Source: a virus
Taxonomy: Duplodnaviria > Caudoviricetes
IMG/VR virus record: IMGVR_UViG_3300016722_000162
Coordinates: 1-38,995 of that record
Reading direction: 5' to 3' (one strand)
DNA length: 38,995 nt
Both the position numbers and the translations under genes were made by a program. Numbering within the stretch: position 1 is the stretch's first letter; each line of letters begins with the position of its first letter. The notes beneath the pieces are model-generated. The model was not told the origin of the DNA. It worked only from the letters and a program-made list of their open reading frames with translations, and made no database searches. Of the stretch, positions 14,087 to 38,995 are shown piece after piece.

Positions 14087-14647
14087 TTAAGTAATATCCT
14101 CTTTGTATTTCCATATAAAACCGCCTGCCGTGCTCTGTTTTCGACCTTTATGTCTCTCCCCCCGGCACACTACATCTATCGCCATTATCCCGGTTTGCCT
14201 AAGGGCCTCACGGTAAGACGGATATTCTTTTATGAAATTACCTTGCAAATCAAATTGAATTACAGGTTTTGAGCCTCGCTTATTTTTTGAAGCGCGATTT
14301 AGTTTCTCAATGCTGTGAACATTGTTCTCGGTATATGTTGCCCACTCCAAGTTAGAAACGTTGTTATTGGCCTTATTCCCATCAATGTGATTCACAATCG
14401 GGCTATTGTTGGGGTTATCAATGAATGCCTCGGCGACTAACCGGTGAACGTGTTTTGGCTTTACCCGGTTTTCCTTGCATAGTTGAACATATTTATATCC
14501 GTTTTCTTTCGTCCCTGGGCTAAGGATGAAATTGCTTTCCCATTCCTTTCCCGTTTGATTTCGGTATGTTCCAACTCTCTTAATTCTTCCTTGGTCGCTT
14601 ACTTGATAAACTCCTTCGTAGCCTACAACATCTTTCCAGTTTTCCAT
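14087..14647 (-). CDS. Intron-encoded NUMOD4-HNH homing endonuclease with C-terminal NUMOD1-like domain
   Basis: MENWKDVVGYEGVYQVSDQGRI (NUMOD4); HRLVAEAFI..VNHIDGNKANNNVSNLEW (HNH); KPVIQFDLQGNFIKEY; AAGGAG RBS. Confidence 0.92.
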   Translation of the reverse strand: MENWKDVVGYEGVYQVSDQGRIKRVGTYRNQTGKEWESNFILSPGTKENGYKYVQLCKENRVKPKHVHRLVAEAFIDNPNNSPIVNHIDGNKANNNVSNLEWATYTENNVHSIEKLNRASKNKRGSKPVIQFDLQGNFIKEYPSYREALRQTGIMAIDVVCRGERHKGRKQSTAGGFIWKYKEDIT

Positions 14648-14668
14648 GATATTACTCCTTATAATAGG

Positions 14669-14697
14669 ATTATACCATAGCTGTAAAGACATCGCAA
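14669..14697 (-). promoter_or_regulatory. Sigma-A-like promoter inside the intron upstream of the endonuclease
   Basis: TTGCGA-17 nt-TATAAT with TG extension. Confidence 0.65.
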
Positions 14698-14834
14698 CAC
14701 TCACTTAATATTCTTAGCACGGGATTGGGCATTGCCGTTCCCCGTTAGCACATAACTATTTTTTTTGTTTGTTATGCACACCGACTTTGTAATGTCGTTC
14801 ACATCGTTTTACTACCACCCAAACTTTTCATTCA

Positions 14835-15662: not shown

Positions 15663-15879
15663 TACTGTGTACCTTGAAACCGTTTTGCTTGAAAAGCCTT
15701 TTCTCTTGTTTTAGCTGGGTAATGCTCTGGCACTTAATGTTTACGAATTCACCATACCCATGCTTTTCCACAGCATAGATTCCGAAGGGGACACGTTCCT
15801 TGGCAATCTCCAACATCTCAAGAAATTTCTTTCTGGGCATCTCGTATATTTTTTTACCTAGTTTCACTTTCATATTCAT
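15646..15879 (-). CDS. Hypothetical phage protein
   Basis: 77 aa, basic, coupled between portal and minor capsid genes. Confidence 0.7.
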   Translation of the reverse strand: MNMKVKLGKKIYEMPRKKFLEMLEIAKERVPFGIYAVEKHGYGEFVNIKCQSITQLKQEKRLFKQNGFKVHSNDERV

Positions 15880-17570
15880 CAGGAAACCTCCTCAATAAAC
15901 GAAATGGCTTTATCTTCAGGAACACCTAATGTACTTACCGCCATTGATATAGCAGCAGAACGTGATAATTCGCCGGACTTTTGGGATTCGACTATCTTCA
16001 ATAGCGCCTGAATCTGAGCACCATTCAAAGTTCTAATGGCTGACTCGCTTCCAGCTGCTGGTTCGTTGCCGACTCCTGGCTCAGTTGTTGCCATTACGCC
16101 TTGTTCTGTCTTCAGCCGGAGAACCTCGGCCAGTTTCCATTCTTTATCCTTCGTATCACCGTAAAGTTCTTCAACGGAGGCTTCGATACTGAGTATCCCT
16201 CCGGTACGCCCTTTCGATATAGTCTCAATTTGGCTCTCAAATGACGGATTCGCATATTCACCAAAGGGAAAATCCACCGTAAACTCTTCAACGGTTTTTT
16301 TCTTGTGATATTCGTTATATGCGCGGATTGCGGTTTTAATTACATCCGGAATGTCCTTTTGCAGAGCTCCCACAATTGCGTTCCTGGAATACAGCGTCGC
16401 CTTTTCCTTTTCCCTCTGCGCTTCCGCATTGTCCAGCTTTTTCATGTCAATTCCAAGGGTGGACGGGCTAATCAGTCCTTGCAAACAAAGATCTAGCGCT
16501 GTACTGTAGGATGTCAGCATGCCTTCATAGTCAATTGTTGGCTGCTCAGTTTGGATCTTATTAGTTCCGTTTTCTTTGAGATCATCGCCAATGGCTATAA
16601 ACTGATTATCAAAGGGATTAGCCTTCATAAGCTTGCCAGATTTCGGGTCTCTTGGAATAAGGGATTCAGGGATGTACTGTTTTATCTTGCCAGCGCGAAA
16701 CGCCGCCATCCACTGAGACCATACTTCATCGAAAGCATCAAAGTTGTCTACCTTGCGGTCGAAAATGCTCTGCCCTCTCCCTGGCCATTTCTGGCTTTTA
16801 AAAACTCTGATTGGTACCGCGAGCATATAAGTGCCTCTAGTACCTTTATTGCCTTCTGAAGATTCCGTATAACCACCAAAGCTGTAATCCGCCATTCCAG
16901 ATGTTTCAGGGATAGATGCAAGGTCTATTTCTCTGCCATCCCGGTACAACTTGTTTCGGATATAGCCATATCCATATGTCTCTTGGAGCTCATAAGTTTT
17001 ACTGGCATGAGTGTAATATGTCTTGAAAACAATCTCCTGAAGGCGCCCACGTTTGATGACGTAATCCACCCGATCACCAGGATAAAACTCAATAATTGGA
17101 TACTCTGTTATGCTCGGATCAAAAGAATATTTGTATGCACCATCACCAATATGAAGCGTCTCCTTCAAATCGGATTCCAACTCCTCCATGAAGTTGTTGT
17201 CCTGATCTATTTTCTTCCAGAGCTCGGCATACGTCTTTGCTTTATCATCAAATTCGATGCTATTCGCATCAGCTAGAGTAATGTCTACCAAGGTATTGAC
17301 AATGAGGCTAGGAAGCCCAGTGTGCGCTTTCCTAATCTCAAGCCCTGGTGTAGACTTCGCTGCCCAAAAACTTTGACTATATAGGCCGTTGGACGCCAGT
17401 TGTTGATGAAGTTGTTCGAGCTCATTGGAGTCACCACGGTACCAAATTCGGTTCTTGGCAGCATTTGTCTCATAGTCCATGGCCTCGGTTACTCTTAATT
17501 CTCTTGTGCCTGATTTTTCAATCTCAAGAAAGCTTCTAATTCCTGATTTCATCTTCTCAACCCACCTCAT
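15879..17570 (-). CDS. Portal protein (SPP1/A118-type)
   Basis: 563 aa directly after terL; GLISPSTLG, REKEKATLY motifs. Confidence 0.88.
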   Translation of the reverse strand: MRWVEKMKSGIRSFLEIEKSGTRELRVTEAMDYETNAAKNRIWYRGDSNELEQLHQQLASNGLYSQSFWAAKSTPGLEIRKAHTGLPSLIVNTLVDITLADANSIEFDDKAKTYAELWKKIDQDNNFMEELESDLKETLHIGDGAYKYSFDPSITEYPIIEFYPGDRVDYVIKRGRLQEIVFKTYYTHASKTYELQETYGYGYIRNKLYRDGREIDLASIPETSGMADYSFGGYTESSEGNKGTRGTYMLAVPIRVFKSQKWPGRGQSIFDRKVDNFDAFDEVWSQWMAAFRAGKIKQYIPESLIPRDPKSGKLMKANPFDNQFIAIGDDLKENGTNKIQTEQPTIDYEGMLTSYSTALDLCLQGLISPSTLGIDMKKLDNAEAQREKEKATLYSRNAIVGALQKDIPDVIKTAIRAYNEYHKKKTVEEFTVDFPFGEYANPSFESQIETISKGRTGGILSIEASVEELYGDTKDKEWKLAEVLRLKTEQGVMATTEPGVGNEPAAGSESAIRTLNGAQIQALLKIVESQKSGELSRSAAISMAVSTLGVPEDKAISFIEEVS

Positions 17571-18853
17571 TATTTCTTCACGCCCTCCCTGGCTTCAGTT
17601 CGTCCAATTTTATCCTTGAATGGCAGCCAAGCATATTGCCTTGCATTCGTCAAATGATCATTCCTGTCTTCCGGCTCGTTCTTGTCCTCTTTCCAGCTAT
17701 ACAAATTCATCTCCCTGATTGTCTCGGTGCAGACATCCACAATCAAAGCATCTTCATGTGCCAGCCAACCACATTCAAGATTGATTCGGTCAAGAATCTG
17801 CGTTTTCTTCCAAGAGCCCTGAAATGTGTAGGTAAGGCCATTCGCTTTTTTATATTTCTGGCATTCAAGTAGTGTGCCTTGATCTGCATTATCAATAAAT
17901 ACATGCCTTGCAAAGCCCCATCCTAAGCCGCCTTCATTAACCGGTGTTCTGCACTTCTCCAAAAAATCAACAAGCAGCTTCGGTATATCAGAAGGTGTGA
18001 GTGGTACTTTCCTGTCTTTGTTGTTATATGCCTGCTCAGCCAGGGTAACTTTCTTCCTGGTATCGGTTATTCCCTCAAACACAAAAGCAAACTTGTCATC
18101 GCTGGTCTGGCTGTACGAGGTGTCAACACCACAGCTGAAAATAATATAGTTCATTCCGGCTGCTTGTTTTGTCGTGATGATGTTCTTTGGTTCCAGGTTG
18201 AATACGAGGCCTGTCGCCCGTCCTCTCAGTCCTAATATCTTGTTTTTATACAGCTTTGTCCCAACAGGCACATTACCAATGATCTGATCCCGCTTTTCCG
18301 GTGTCAGCCCGGCGTTGTGATCAAAAGAAAAGAACCAGTGCACCCATCCGGGCTTTGGCTCTTCGTTTAGCATTTGATTCAGTTCTTCCGGCGCATCCTT
18401 TTCGAATTCAGGTAATGGCCGGCTGTGGTTGATGTATTCCTTGTACACCGGCAAATCCGGATCATCCGGGTTTAGGGTTGCCATGAGATAGTCACAGCGC
18501 ATGCTGGTCTCTCGGATATAGTCCATGTCGGCGACGTTGATTTCATCGATGAACACACAGCCATTCTGTGAGCCTAGTGTTTTCTTCCAGCGCGCCTTAT
18601 CCCCATAACCCAGAACATATATGATCTTATCCTGGTAGGCAAGATGTGGTAAGTTTTCCTTGCCCCGCCCAGATGGATTGTACTGGACCAAATCCCCAAA
18701 CACATCCAAGATGCCAAGGTCTTTGTTGATAATATTCTTTTCGATGGTTCCAAGATCAAGCCCCGCAATGATGTGCTGTTTTTTAGCACTTTCCTTGACC
18801 ATGAGCATGAACTTTACAATGCCGACCGTTGTTTTTCCTGCATATGTTGTCAT
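17570..18853 (-). CDS. terL: Terminase large subunit, main part (N-terminal 27 codons are in another frame)
   Basis: Partial Walker A TTYAGKTT, Walker B VFIDEIN, ATLNPD, RNase H-type GVD and DHL motifs. Confidence 0.92.
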   Translation of the reverse strand: MTTYAGKTTVGIVKFMLMVKESAKKQHIIAGLDLGTIEKNIINKDLGILDVFGDLVQYNPSGRGKENLPHLAYQDKIIYVLGYGDKARWKKTLGSQNGCVFIDEINVADMDYIRETSMRCDYLMATLNPDDPDLPVYKEYINHSRPLPEFEKDAPEELNQMLNEEPKPGWVHWFFSFDHNAGLTPEKRDQIIGNVPVGTKLYKNKILGLRGRATGLVFNLEPKNIITTKQAAGMNYIIFSCGVDTSYSQTSDDKFAFVFEGITDTRKKVTLAEQAYNNKDRKVPLTPSDIPKLLVDFLEKCRTPVNEGGLGWGFARHVFIDNADQGTLLECQKYKKANGLTYTFQGSWKKTQILDRINLECGWLAHEDALIVDVCTETIREMNLYSWKEDKNEPEDRNDHLTNARQYAWLPFKDKIGRTEAREGVKK

Positions 18854-18933
18854 GTCCCTTCGAGAAACTCTACCGGGGATTTGTGTTTCAGAAAAGTTTT
18901 ATATTTTTCCGATAGTAGAAATTGTTCACTCAA
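18850..18933 (-). CDS. terL: Terminase large subunit N-terminal segment MSEQFLLSEKYKTFLKHKSPVEFLEGT, ending at TGA within a 5-nt insertion
   Basis: TTG start 7 nt after GGGGGTGA RBS; supplies the beta strand and first Gly of Walker A G-T-T-Y-A-G-K-T. Confidence 0.85.
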   Translation of the reverse strand: MSEQFLLSEKYKTFLKHKSPVEFLEGT

Positions 18934-18940
18934 AGGGATG

Positions 18941-19489
18941 TCACCCCCTTCCGCGAGGACGTCTGTTATTGGATTGCTCCTTCATTGTTGCCCATCTACA
19001 GTTTTCTGGGCAATATGCACCGTTAACATCTATCCGATCGATTGTAAGCGTGTCCTCGTAACCATGAGTCAACGCCCAATCACGAAAAGCAACAAAATCA
19101 GTTTCCCATTCAGTACAAACCCTGATTCCTCTTCCGCCGTAAAAAGCGTAATTTGTGGCGGCTTGATTATTGCAACGCTTTTTTATGCCTTTCCAGATAT
19201 TATATAGTCTGGTACCTCTGCCACCGTGCTTCAAAGCGTTGGCTTTGTTCCTTTGCGCGGCTTCTGGAGTAGCAGATATCTCGCGATTATAACAACCACA
19301 ACTCGTGGTGCCTCCGCTTGTTAGGCTTTTGGCCATAATGGACTTTTGCCTTCCGCATGAGCATTCACAAAGCCATTTAGGCGCATGTTTGCCGCTTTTC
19401 GGATATATATAGTCTTCATCTCGTTCAATGACAGTCAAGCGGCCGAACTGCCTGCCAGTCAAATCCTCTAAGGTTCTCCACATCACCAA
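18941..19489 (-). CDS. Free-standing HNH-like (bba-Me) homing endonuclease
   Basis: [53 protein letters not shown] motifs; between terS and terL. Confidence 0.85.
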
Positions 19490-19494
19490 GCCTC

Positions 19495-19938
19495 CTATTT
19501 TTCTTTAAGCTGCTTTATTATATCATCAAGCTTATTATTATTCACGTTAATGCCACCAGAGAGGCTTAATTTGTCCTCGTACAGACCGTAACGTTTGCCA
19601 AGAAGCTCAGCTGCCTTCAAGCGGTCTTTGGCCCCTACCTGCTTATCCCTGAGCCTTTGTTCCCCATCTCCAACAAACATCGGGACCTCTTCGGACTCTT
19701 CCCCACGGAGAATGGCAGTCAGGAACCGCAGGACCTCATCCTGACCCGCGATCAGCGCTGATTCCTTCTCTGCCATGCGTGAGTCAATCGCACTTCGAAT
19801 ATCAAGTTTTGACAAGTTTTGTTGCCCGATTCTATTTGCGGTTTTCCGGGAATACCCCGCTCTTATCGCCGCTGCTGTGGCGTTCAAATCAATCAGGTAT
19901 TCATCGACGAACCGCTTTTGTTTGTCCGTCAGTTTCAT
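19495..19938 (-). CDS. terS: Terminase small subunit
   Basis: [30 protein letters not shown]...KAAELLGK; GGAGG RBS. Confidence 0.93.
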
Positions 19939-32902: not shown

Positions 32903-33003
32903 AATCACTCAAAACCAGTACTATTTCGTCAAAATATAGAATAAAACGGCAATTTGGCATGAAAAAACATTCGCATTGTGCGAAGGAGTTTTGCAAAAAA
33001 GTG

Positions 33004-33032
33004 TTTACAAACTAGGTTACCGGTGGTATTAT
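33004..33032 (+). promoter_or_regulatory. Sigma-A-like promoter of abi locus
   Basis: TTTACA-17-TATTAT with TG extension. Confidence 0.7.
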
Positions 33033-33038
33033 TACCTA

Positions 33039-33110
33039 ACAGAGAAGAGTTCTTCTCCTTGAATATGGAACGTACGCCGGAAGCCTTAGGGCCCGGCGTC
33101 TTTATTTTTT
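33039..33110 (+). ncRNA. Structured leader RNA upstream of abi gene, candidate RNA antitoxin or attenuator
   Basis: Hairpin GAGAAG-AGTT-CTTCTC, then ACGCCGG...CCGGCGT stem with T-rich tail before the RBS. Confidence 0.55.
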
Positions 33111-33124
33111 GGAAAGGGATAATC

Positions 33125-34069
33125 ATGGCAGAGGATAAAGAATTTCGTACTCACGATCAACTCATTGACAAACTGATAAATGAGCGAAAAATGACAATAA
33201 CAAATCGTAACAAAGCAAAGAAAATGCTTGAGCGAGAAGGGTATTATAATTTGATAAATGGTTACAAAGACCCCTTCTTATCAGCACAGTCTCAATGCGA
33301 AGAATTTCTTCCGGGAACTAAAATGGAAGAATTATTGGCCGTATATACATTTGACCGGGAACTGCGTCAGACAATACTCAAACGCCTTTTACACATCGAG
33401 ACGCATGTAAAAAGCTTAATCGCTTATCGTTTTTCAGAACAATATGGACATGACAATTATCTAAAATATATAAACTTCGATACCTCAGATAGAAATCTTT
33501 ATGAGAAAACGATTAAGCTAATCGCACACATACAACGCCAAGTGGCTGATCGTGCTTTCGACCCTTGCATTGCGCATTATCTTGGTAAATATGCTTACAT
33601 TCCGCTCTGGGTGTTGAACAGTGTTTTGACCTTTGGAACCATAAGTAAATACTACAGTGTCTTGAAACCACAAGACAAAATGAGCGTAGCAAAGTCGATG
33701 CAACTAATGTCTGAAGATCTCGAGAACATATTGCTTGTATTGTCTTCTGCCAGAAATATGTGCGCCCACGGGAATCGACTTTTTTGTTATCGGAGCAAGC
33801 GCCCTTTGATTGACCTGCCAATACATAAAAAAATGAAAATACCAATGAATGCGTCTGGTAAGGAGTATCAATATGGTAAAAGGGATTTATTTTCAGTTAT
33901 TATAGCGATGAAAATGACTCTACCAAAAAAAGAATTCGAAAACATGACAGACAATATTCATTATCATTATAAAAAAATGAACAAGGAGCTTTCAACAATT
34001 TCCGGAACCAGCATTTTGGACATTATGGGGTTTCCTCATGATTGGTTAAAACAAATAAACACAATATAG
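33125..34069 (+). CDS. Abi family (AbiD/AbiF, Abi_2) HEPN abortive-infection protein
   Basis: GYYNLINGYK, YTFDRELR, IETHVKS, PLWVL...LTFG and RNMCAH (RxxxxH) motifs; 314 aa. Confidence 0.9.
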   Translation: MAEDKEFRTHDQLIDKLINERKMTITNRNKAKKMLEREGYYNLINGYKDPFLSAQSQCEEFLPGTKMEELLAVYTFDRELRQTILKRLLHIETHVKSLIAYRFSEQYGHDNYLKYINFDTSDRNLYEKTIKLIAHIQRQVADRAFDPCIAHYLGKYAYIPLWVLNSVLTFGTISKYYSVLKPQDKMSVAKSMQLMSEDLENILLVLSSARNMCAHGNRLFCYRSKRPLIDLPIHKKMKIPMNASGKEYQYGKRDLFSVIIAMKMTLPKKEFENMTDNIHYHYKKMNKELSTISGTSILDIMGFPHDWLKQINTI

Positions 34070-36501: not shown

Positions 36502-38076
36502 CTAATTATAAGTTGAAGTATCCCCAGAGAATGATACTCCCGGAAATAGTTTTTGTGGATTTTCTGCTCCGCTCGGATTGTTATATTCCGAACTCGTTCC
36601 ATCGCTGATAACGGCAAAATGCAAATGTGGACCCGTCGAATCACCAGTTGTCCCAACATAGCCAACAATTGCGCCTTCACTAACACTATCTCCAACATCA
36701 TATGAGGAAGTAGCGTTCATATGTTTACACGAGTAGCGAAGCAGGTATCCACTTGTTGGATCATAAGATGATGACGTTCGAATAACTATGAAATTCCCTT
36801 CCGATGAACGGTATTCACTAATCATGACAACGCCACTGCTTGGTGCATGAATAGCCCTCCCATTAATACTTGTGCCGTGACCAACAATATCGATTCCATA
36901 GTGTGTCGGACGCGTTGGTAGTTTATAACCTGAAGATATATAATCATAGTACGAAGAGCTGACAAACATATATGACCAACCAAGCTTAGCATAATTCAGC
37001 CAGGAGGAGTCTGTTTTTACGAAAACCCATTTACTGTACTCCGCCCCGCCATTCATATGCTGATCCACATCATAATCCGGGTGATCCGAGCAAACTTTCA
37101 TCCCTCTGCTTAAGTAACTTGCCTGAACAGATAAACGGAAGGTTCCAGCGTCGCTCTGATCTCTAACAATATACCACTCACAATCGTTCGCTATATTATC
37201 CGGATCTGAACCAGTCCCTGTTGTATAGACTGTTATGTTCTGCCCTGATTCATCAGCTGCAGGGTAAGGCGGATCATCACCATGTGTGCCACTTACATGC
37301 AGCGCCAATGTTGTACTATAATTTGGTCTTAGGACGTACCGACCATTGCCAAGATAGGTTACATCCCACTTTTGGTTATTCCCCCCAGTATATGGGCTGC
37401 AATTGACATTTGTATCGTTTGCCGTTCCCGATCCATATACGGTTAAGAACTCCCCTGTATCATAATTTTGTATGTAATACTCATCTGATGATAATGTATT
37501 AGTCATGCTCCCAGTTTGAAGAACTAATAGCCAATATTCGTACTCACTGCCACTTGTTTCAGTGCTAACATACACAGACCCAGACGAATTGCATGTTAGG
37601 ACGAGATTTGGATTAGATTTCAAACGAATAATATAATGTTGCCCATCCGGCACGTAGTCCAAAACCCAAAGTTGGCAATCGTCTGCAGCCGCGAGTTGGC
37701 TATAAATCTCGACATTCGCACCACTTTGTAACGGAGTCTTGACATCAAGTACCTTGGTGCTTGATGTGTATAAATATAGACGATAAGCATCATTCGAACT
37801 GTCATACTCCATTCGCCATTCTTGCTCTTCGCTACTGTCTTGAACCTCAGCATTCACATCAGTATAGTTGGCTGGATTTGGAGCTGCCCCCGTAGAATTC
37901 AGGTAAAGATTTGTTGCTTTGCACTTTAGTTCATACCTAAACCCGTCTGAGACGCCTGCTTGCTCTGCTGGGTTTGAAGTTGCTGTATAAGTTTCTCCAT
38001 ACGCTGGTACCAGATTAATCGAAAGCAAAAACAAGATAGTCAAAATTGCAATTCCAATTTTTCTTTTCTTCCTCAT
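36502..38076 (-). CDS. Secreted protein with two ricin B (beta-trefoil) domains and C-terminal M23 peptidase
   Basis: Signal peptide; repeated QxW motifs (QEW, QLW, QKW); HYGID, HM, GTTGDSTGPHLHF; AGGAGG RBS. Confidence 0.88.
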   Translation of the reverse strand: MRKKRKIGIAILTILFLLSINLVPAYGETYTATSNPAEQAGVSDGFRYELKCKATNLYLNSTGAAPNPANYTDVNAEVQDSSEEQEWRMEYDSSNDAYRLYLYTSSTKVLDVKTPLQSGANVEIYSQLAAADDCQLWVLDYVPDGQHYIIRLKSNPNLVLTCNSSGSVYVSTETSGSEYEYWLLVLQTGSMTNTLSSDEYYIQNYDTGEFLTVYGSGTANDTNVNCSPYTGGNNQKWDVTYLGNGRYVLRPNYSTTLALHVSGTHGDDPPYPAADESGQNITVYTTGTGSDPDNIANDCEWYIVRDQSDAGTFRLSVQASYLSRGMKVCSDHPDYDVDQHMNGGAEYSKWVFVKTDSSWLNYAKLGWSYMFVSSSYYDYISSGYKLPTRPTHYGIDIVGHGTSINGRAIHAPSSGVVMISEYRSSEGNFIVIRTSSSYDPTSGYLLRYSCKHMNATSSYDVGDSVSEGAIVGYVGTTGDSTGPHLHFAVISDGTSSEYNNPSGAENPQKLFPGVSFSGDTSTYN

Positions 38077-38277
38077 TTTGTTACCTCCTAATATTTTACC
38101 TAATCTTATAAAACCTCCTTTCGTCTGAATTTTCACACTATTATTGTAGCACATAATTGGCATCGTGCACGCTATATGGCGAAACTCGTATGTCTACATG
38201 GTGAAACTCGTCTTTTTTTGTCGTTTTCACACAGTTTAGGATAAAAAAAGAAGCTCTGAAGAGCCTCTCATGGTGCT

Positions 38278-38556: not shown

Positions 38557-38942
38557 TTTACTCCACCTGCATCATTTGAAACGTTAAAGCCCGTCCATGA
38601 AGATGCTACTCTTCCAACTGGATCGTCGTCTGAAGGCATAAACACTGAGGCGTGTGCATAAACAACTTCTGAAATGTCGGGATCCAGATACTCTCGAATA
38701 TAAATTTCCTTCTCGGGTTCTTTCTTATGTTCGTAAATAGCGTCCGGATAATTAATGGTATCGTGCAAATCCTCTAAGGTTATCTCAGCGTCGTGTTTGG
38801 ATTGAATGTGCGCCCATCGCTCTTCGGTGCATATCACCGTGTAGCCTTCGCGACTCCAAACTTCTAAAACTGGACTGCGTCGAAAAACGAGCACTGGGTA
38901 ATGTAATTTCATATGCATAGAAAGGGAGATTACAAATGCCAA
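38538..38942 (-). CDS. Putative RelE/BECR-fold nuclease (toxin partner of DUF2283); start uncertain
   Basis: TEERWAHIQSKH...TINYPDAIY pattern; overlaps DUF2283 gene. Confidence 0.6.
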   Translation of the reverse strand: MAFVISLSMHMKLHYPVLVFRRSPVLEVWSREGYTVICTEERWAHIQSKHDAEITLEDLHDTINYPDAIYEHKKEPEKEIYIREYLDPDISEVVYAHASVFMPSDDDPVGRVASSWTGFNVSNDAGGVKWKRNK

Positions 38943-38995
38943 GCAATAACTCGAAGTACACAGAAGAAATGAGAACCCAAACAGCGGAGTTCATC

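Follow-up and report, generated by a model that had tools for sequence, protein, structure and literature searches.

A short insert that breaks the large terminase gene (terL) of a prophage-like contig at its ATP-binding loop is real, conserved and mobile: inserts of 4–6 bases recur at this one loop in many phages of guts and bioreactors, accompanied by a predicted RNA helix and, in many cases, by a neighbouring HNH endonuclease gene, which suggests that ribosomes likely hop the gap. On comparative sequence evidence, the best reading is probably a stop-triggered ribosomal hop (over 5 nt in the contig described here) that is carried on a homing cassette.

The interrupted terL locus

The window (the whole 38,995-nt stretch analysed) is a prophage-like contig with an integrase at 34.2–35.4 kb; its minus strand carries genes for packaging, head, tail and lysis, and a check for circularity found no terminal repeat in it. 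Its single terL stands in the minus-strand order terS, HNH gene, 27-codon open reading frame (ORF), 427-codon ORF and portal gene (Table 1). Across the break the minus strand reads GAG TTT CTC GAA GGG ACA TGA CAA CAT ATG CAG GAA AAA C, so that the ORF at 18933–18850 specifies 27 residues with EFLEGT at the C terminus, and the ORF at 18853–17570, in a different frame, opens with MTTYAGKTT. A first-pass annotation of this DNA had proposed a 5-nt insert in the Walker A region, with a take-off ACA, a TGA, a landing ACA and a further ACA (18847–45) at which translation would resume. The layout lies exactly as it described, and the insert is confirmed by the sequence and by a contig from the probable source run (X1), which covers the site at 100% identity. 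A contig from a second study (X4, which may be DNA) has five substitutions and no gap over 18828–18977, with fewer than 31 bases of downstream overhang, and it therefore does not formally bridge the insert site. The HNH gene, placed by the same annotation about 90 bp upstream, does end about 90 nt before the insert, a distance that can be refined to 8 nt between its stop codon and the terL start; it may have an alternative start (ATG 19483), and Pfam gave no match for it.

In a structural model of an uninterrupted homolog (L003; pLDDT 88.5), which matches the D6E large terminase (E 5e-27), a strand at residues 23–28 is followed by a loop (29–33) and a helix (34–48); on this model, the break falls between strand beta1 and the P-loop. 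No suppressor tRNA is encoded in the window.

Table 1. Features of the interrupted terL locus, ordered along the minus strand.
Feature	Position	Strand	Basis
terS, small terminase	19495..19938	(-)	Pfam Terminase_2 E 3e-36; open from 19998, homologous part from about 19938
Free-standing HNH endonuclease gene, 180-182 aa, uninterrupted	18941..19489	(-)	phrog_374 HNH (PHROGs), E 5e-63
Very strong Shine-Dalgarno of terL ORF1, overlapping the HNH stop codon	18941..18952	(-)	Sequence; anti-SD duplex -17 kcal/mol
5' arm of predicted leader-junction helix, CCCUUUGAG, holding the UUG start codon	18929..18937	(-)	Predicted fold
terL ORF1, 27 codons, covering the N-terminal helix and strand beta1 as far as the Walker A Gly-Thr	18850..18933	(-)	ORF list; L003 model
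3' arm of predicted helix, CUC GAA GGG (Leu-Glu-Gly), ending at the take-off codon	18856..18864	(-)	Predicted fold
Proposed take-off codon ACA (Thr)	18853..18855	(-)	Sequence; inference
5-nt coding gap TGACA: TGA 18852-50, +4 base C 18849, proposed landing ACA 18850-48	18848..18852	(-)	Sequence
terL ORF2 from the resume codon: remaining ATPase and nuclease domain, no second break	17570..18847	(-)	PHROGs terminase large subunit
Portal gene, uninterrupted (context)	15879..17570	(-)	phrog_533 E 9e-88

Elsewhere in the window, a minor capsid gene (14834–13984, minus strand) stops at ...AGLYH-TGA and resumes at ...PNCKDGHTTYFP after a NUMOD4-HNH-NUMOD1 gene (14087–14704). We take the ends of this interruption to resemble those of a group I intron, given their P7-like motifs and terminal G; Rfam gave no match there, and a related HNH gene occupies a similar place in locus L032. 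An Abi_2 family gene (32978–34069, plus strand) adjoins the integrase, and beyond the integrase lies a gene (36502–38163, minus strand) whose product combines ricin-type lectin domains with a peptidase M23 domain. The contig ends within the start of an ORF (38935–38995, plus strand) that presumably resembles an insertion sequence transposase, which would be the likely cause of the assembly break.

Recurrence of the insert and signals around it

Walker A is visible in 77 of the best 80 closest viral relatives, and six carry a +5 insert: ACA-TG-ACA in the window, ACC-TA-ACC in two and ACT-TA-ACT in three. A scan with a fixed +5 pattern that left 17 central bases free returned 67 viral matches, all with C after the stop (67/67), the stop following the first Thr codon in 66 and the second in one; the uninterrupted terL pattern matched about 1400 stretches (IMG/VR). 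Two variable-gap scans, which admitted gaps of 1–30 nt and whose result sets overlap, yielded real inserts of the +4 and +5 classes only (96 of 104 and 68 of 70 matches) and no in-frame sense insertion. The first comprised 72 +5, 24 +4 (Gly-TAG/TGA-C) and 8 false anchors, which are uninterrupted genes with an earlier anchor, and the second 50 +5, 18 +4 and 2 unrelated matches. GTDB genomes contributed 24 matches (20 +5 and 4 +4), nearly all titled Clostridia or Lachnospiraceae and with isolates included, and metagenomes 106 (83 +5, 20 +4, 2 +4 after Glu and 1 that is not an insert). For the +5 class, the patterns behind these last two sets already require a C after the stop, and the unbiased tests of stop+C are the free-centre pattern, the variable-gap scans and an endonuclease-side search, which added an in-frame +6 insert after Glu (GAA TAG CAA). 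A split match was found in 0 of 15 annotated phage records of this terL family.

Dereplication at 90% reduced 473 loci with enough flank to 167 contexts, of which 99 are uninterrupted and 68 are interrupted in five registers along E-G-T-T, with gaps of 4–6 nt (49 +5 after the first Thr, 15 +4 after Gly, 2 +4 after Glu, 1 +5 after the second Thr and 1 +6 after Glu). The stop lies directly 3′ to the codon of take-off in 68/68. The insert, present in viral, GTDB and metagenome sets, is thus not unique to the window genome, and the same layout in so many phages excludes chance or assembly error. Three kinds of unusual locus were encountered: an in-frame 6-nt insert (GAA TAG CAA GGC) with its own 10-bp helix, a candidate natural in-frame stop-hop (L375:1640-1770); two +4 inserts after a Glu codon, with a helix of wholly different sequence ending at the take-off codon (L561 and L633); and a terL without an insert in which an in-frame TAG precedes Walker A, perhaps because the gene is a pseudogene or the stop is recoded (L594).

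Downstream of the insert, the interrupted genes are under purifying selection. ORF2 is complete in 52/52 interrupted contexts with enough sequence, and the median dN/dS over 150 codons is 0.042 for interrupted (198 pairs) versus 0.043 for uninterrupted genes (64 pairs), the pairs not being independent. EGTT is present in 99/99 uninterrupted contexts, which favours precise removal of the gap, and E27-G28-T29-T30 and G33-K34-T35 are invariant in 60 homologs.

Codon matching across the gap was assessed in the 49 contexts with a +5 insert after the first Thr. The third bases of take-off and landing codons match in 28/49 and differ in 21/49, as against 5/49 for take-off versus resume codons; in uninterrupted genes, the two Thr codons agree at this base in 26/99. 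Third bases of C and of a purine need different tRNAs under wobble rules, and such take-off/landing pairs occur once in 49, versus 4.5 expected from shuffling. Where the stop is TAG, the landing triplet becomes GCN (5/49), which, if decoded, would place Ala at the invariant Thr, where Ala is never seen. In the +4 and +6 registers, the landing triplet matches at no more than two positions out of three (GGY to AGC or GAC; GAA to GAC or CAA). Natural terL stops are followed by C in 12/135. No nascent-peptide signal is apparent, the ORF1 residues being the same as in uninterrupted genes, and a GARGG motif that lies 6–8 nt ahead of landing follows from the E-G codons themselves.

A strong Shine–Dalgarno sequence (SD) precedes 67/68 interrupted versus 29/99 uninterrupted genes. 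Where terL is interrupted, the sequence surrounding its start is predicted to pair with the codons immediately ahead of take-off. A duplex of −6 kcal/mol or lower was obtained for 65/65 unique interrupted contexts, compared with 21% of 160 uninterrupted ones, and window positions 18830–18960 fold at −36.9 kcal/mol (z −3.6, 0/200 shuffles). Because best-register pair counts favour pairing by construction, a fixed-column test was used instead, on an ungapped alignment of 28 of the 49 +5 contexts (those with a 27-codon ATG layout; the sequences are related). Helix cells were paired in 94.6% of cases, versus 30–63% when slid; the pair opposite the third base of the Glu codon was C-G in 19 sequences and U-A in 9, with none broken, and two-sided change was confined to 2/12 helix pairs. 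In the Gly, Glu and second-Thr registers, the helix arm changes sequence and tracks the stop. Whole-region folds gave a helix probability above 0.5 in 43% of +5, 100% of +4 and 0% of uninterrupted contexts. RNAalifold, run on all 49 +5 contexts, returned a weak local SD hairpin (a possible competing fold) and no long-range helix, since start-codon subclasses pair in different registers. The helix base lies 4–6 nt before the landing codon and abuts the take-off codon, so the helix would be incomplete while that codon occupies the P site. The predicted helix could be a mere initiation repressor, and such repression is also compatible with it as a second role. Together, the conserved layout and its co-variation lend comparative support to the first-pass idea of a take-off, stop and landing arrangement like that of T4 gene 60.

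Endonuclease linkage and cassette boundaries

We assessed linkage to HNH genes in contexts with 700 nt of flank, co-occurrence of insert and endonuclease being a check proposed in the first-pass annotation. An HNH gene lies directly upstream of terL in 21/64 of the interrupted contexts, or 14/57 once loci retrieved by way of their HNH gene are set aside, and in 0/79 uninterrupted ones; the insert persists without an HNH gene in 43/64. From the endonuclease side, 10 of the 80 loci of a NUMOD4-HNH family (phrog_59) precede this terL, and 10/10 of these are interrupted; wherever an HNH gene stands between terS and this terL and the Walker A region is intact, the insert is present. Among 80 loci of the window's own HNH family (phrog_374), only the window copy precedes this terL (0/79 others); the window gene differs from the usual partner type, NUMOD4 phrog_59. 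In a further locus (L017:1-480), a window-type HNH (74% over 68 aa) and the same leader stand before a terL with its Walker A region deleted.

The extent of the mobile unit was examined by aligning ten pairs of interrupted and empty alleles. Among the matches listed, three pairs (L170/L273, L161/L540 and L220/L098) are identical up to the old terL start, where the HNH gene begins, and two (L170/L273 and L186/L108) are 100% identical for 60–120 nt past GKT. In one locus (L032) the old terL's first 26 codons are joined to the HNH gene, and HNH remnants persist in two others (L018 and L270). On a FastTree phylogeny of 155 C-terminal TerL sequences, the insert state switches 41 times, with gain and loss indistinguishable. 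These boundaries fit a unit that comprises the HNH gene, a new leader, the first ~27 codons and the insert, and that would replace the old first 27 codons; we infer cleavage at a putative site near E-G-T-T. With an intact gene beside a modified target, a patchy distribution and extant empty alleles, the HNH genes appear to be free-standing homing-endonuclease cassettes. The co-occurrence, and cassette boundaries that lie at the insert, thus bring comparative support to the cassette suggested in the first pass. Protection of terL from the endonuclease by the insert is likely for the family as a whole, and for the window's own HNH it is favoured by a small margin.

Proposed mechanism, rival explanations and known systems

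On the reading that we prefer, a stop codon followed by C, probably a weak terminator by analogy with the RF2 site (PMC5009743), would buy time for the hop; a bacterial paper on stop tetranucleotides was sought in the literature and none was found. The ribosome would pause at TGA, and the peptidyl-tRNA-Thr would leave ACA, slide five bases and re-pair on the next ACA, to give full-length TerL. As the mRNA exits the ribosome, the helix that joins the start region to the Leu-Glu-Gly codons would zip, pushing the ribosome forward and blocking back-sliding; it may also restrict the loading of trailing ribosomes, for which the very strong SD would compensate. The unit of HNH gene, leader, ~27 codons and insert would home into insert-less terL by cutting near E-G-T-T, after which the insert would shield the cut site and leave the invariant protein loop unchanged, and the HNH gene could later be lost or swapped. 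We are evenly divided on a broader proposal, in which these inserts form a widespread, portable, minimal recoding module: a start-region helix clamp would turn almost any codon (Thr, Gly or Glu) into a take-off site and set a 4–6-nt hop despite imperfect landing pairs, and several HNH families would use it to protect an invariant ATP-binding loop.

Of the alternatives, the one that survives best is compatible with this hop: that it is real and regulates the terminase level by sensing release factor or tRNA, with the HNH gene as a passenger. We regard this as possible, if rather unlikely. The 43 of 64 interrupted contexts that lack an HNH gene retain the stop, SD and helix, and a regulatory role has been proposed for the Hau3 gap in the accessible part of its report (PMC10732093); against it, an insert accompanies every HNH gene that stands between terS and this terL wherever Walker A is intact, and the MobA element too persists after loss of its nuclease, according to the available sections of 10.1101/2022.08.31.505936.

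A stop-stimulated single-base frameshift (−1 or +2 at the 5-nt gap, +1 at the 4-nt gap, with readthrough at the 6-nt gap) is unlikely, and would add one or two residues to the P-loop. The +4 class, with GGY, a stop and C after about 26 codons, does resemble the RF2 site as given in the relevant passage of PMC5009743, and its landing match of only two bases in three is in keeping with a shift. However, loop length is fixed in uninterrupted genes (99/99 contexts and 60 homologs) and no in-frame sense insert occurs, inspection found no X XXY YYZ site, the co-variation of take-off and landing codons would go unexplained, and a single mechanism would not span +4, +5 and +6. An RF2-type +1 shift also fits poorly: ACA U and GGY U would re-pair poorly at +1, and the window needs +5 or −1.

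Removal of the extra bases from the RNA before translation, by editing or by guided cut-and-join with the leader helix as guide, is improbable. Such a process could account for a helix that ends exactly beside the insert and for the weaker SD pairing that, in many loci, runs past the stop and loops out the junction, and a probable group I intron lies elsewhere in this phage. Yet inspection shows no complementarity between the leader and the joined sequence, the pairing past the stop is found in uninterrupted genes too, Rfam gave no match near terL or elsewhere in the window, and a conserved weak stop with matched codons would be needless.

Still less probable is a two-piece TerL, offered in the first pass as an alternative, in which termination is followed by re-initiation at an overlapping ATG and the 27-aa peptide reassembles with the rest, the helix possibly bringing the strong SD close. 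The window has the ATGA overlap, and 11/68 interrupted contexts (the window included) have ATG, GTG or TTG in the downstream frame before GKT, with only rare starts in 12 more; but 45/68 have no start there (ATG/GTG/TTG/CTG/ATH), and the idea therefore fails as a general mechanism; a break at the junction of beta1 and the P-loop and the lack of terminal extensions of the kind that the available text of 10.1101/2022.08.31.505936 describes in split mobA/mobE hosts also count against it. Re-initiation may be a side product, in the window only. A decayed prophage gene or a sequence error, conceivable for a contig that is a metagenome prophage fragment, is effectively ruled out by the recurrence of this layout across dozens of lineages and among isolate genomes, an intact ORF2 under purifying selection, a compensatory helix, the X1 contig and the other structural genes, which look intact, as first described, and are uninterrupted in the window.

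Proven bacterial bypassing has been mainly that of T4 gene 60, with Hau3 as a candidate. The terL inserts supply dozens of natural variants in five registers, along with near-identical alleles that are empty, and some come from cultured gut Clostridia; what a hop needs at minimum (stop context, landing match and 5′ helix) could therefore be tested with 120-nt reporters. If the ribosomal hop is correct, it would represent natural bypassing over a very short distance, disseminated by a selfish gene, and a selfish nuclease may thereby immunise a site whose protein sequence cannot change. If the portable module is also correct, it would be the first family of natural stop-hops in Firmicutes and would offer homing endonucleases a new route into essential genes that requires neither intron nor intein. 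Of this terL family, a few percent (about 70–100 matches versus about 1400 uninterrupted stretches in IMG/VR) are otherwise liable to annotation as pseudogenes or truncated proteins.

No prior description of this insert family was found in a literature search (subscription papers and bioRxiv supplements lay outside its scope), which returned only gene 60/MobA, Hau3 and general papers. In the accessible portions of reports on split inteins (PMC2677866), Skunavirus HNHs (PMC12724721) and spliced terL (PMC10055350), none of the systems matches. Essential genes broken near or by a homing endonuclease include the mobE-split nrdA of Aeh1 and, in the portion of PMC10055350 available, the ICP1 terL intron with its neighbouring endonuclease gene. 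Repair there is by protein reassembly and by splicing, respectively, whereas the terL inserts mostly lack a second start and contain no intron, and their HNH gene lies upstream of both pieces rather than between them, as in mobE/nrdA. RF2 (prfB), with UGA at codon 26 nearly always followed by C (per the RF2 passage of PMC5009743), shares an ORF1 of about 26 codons that ends in stop+C; the terL inserts differ in having no CUU-U shift site and no SD 3 nt upstream, and a frameshift product would carry extra P-loop residues. Stop-hops in Escherichia coli, from synthetic constructs, also have matched codons flanking a stop, and the part of that review devoted to them (PMC5009743) knows of no natural in-frame case; the terL case is natural, lies in an essential gene and has added signals.

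The terL genes of Hau3 and StrepC.1 (Antonov et al. 2023, PMC10732093) likewise contain, within a conserved region, a short block that is non-coding. As described in the available text, these blocks are UUA-led and 7–10 nt long (10 nt in Hau3), with a proposed regulatory role, and bypass was seen by mass spectrometry for Hau3 in E. coli with a stop replacing UUA; 'HNH' and 'homing endonuclease' have 0 occurrences in it. The inserts described here always have a stop and never UUA, and span 4–6 rather than 7–10 nt.

The closest likeness is to T4 gene 60 and MobA (Manning & Atkins; Wills et al.). In the T4 case and in terL alike, a stop lies right after take-off, the landing codon is matched with wobble latitude, and the site falls at invariant residues and can shift by a codon. 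Pairing of the exiting mRNA has been proposed to push the ribosome forward on gene 60 (in the sections available of 10.1101/2024.12.09.627546, PMC5009743 and PMC11194080), and by analogy the predicted terL leader helix may act as a similar 5′ driver. For the MobA element, the accessible text of 10.1101/2022.08.31.505936 describes an insert that protects against nicking and outlasts its nuclease, nucleases that are swapped, and a take-off that shifts by one codon; the terL inserts resemble it in that a free-standing HNH gene belongs to the cassette, the insert survives loss of the endonuclease and endonucleases are swapped. The differences from gene 60 are that the host gene is terL rather than a topoisomerase large subunit, that the gap is 4–6 rather than 50 nt and too short for a take-off stem-loop, that there are five registers with Thr, Gly or Glu take-off, and that the predicted helix is long-range and includes the start codon; from gene 60 and MobA alike, the terL inserts are set apart by Clostridia hosts and an endonuclease that lies wholly upstream of the gene. 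The terL insert thus works like gene 60/mobA and yet is not a member of the MobA family, from which it differs in host gene, gap size and take-off stem.
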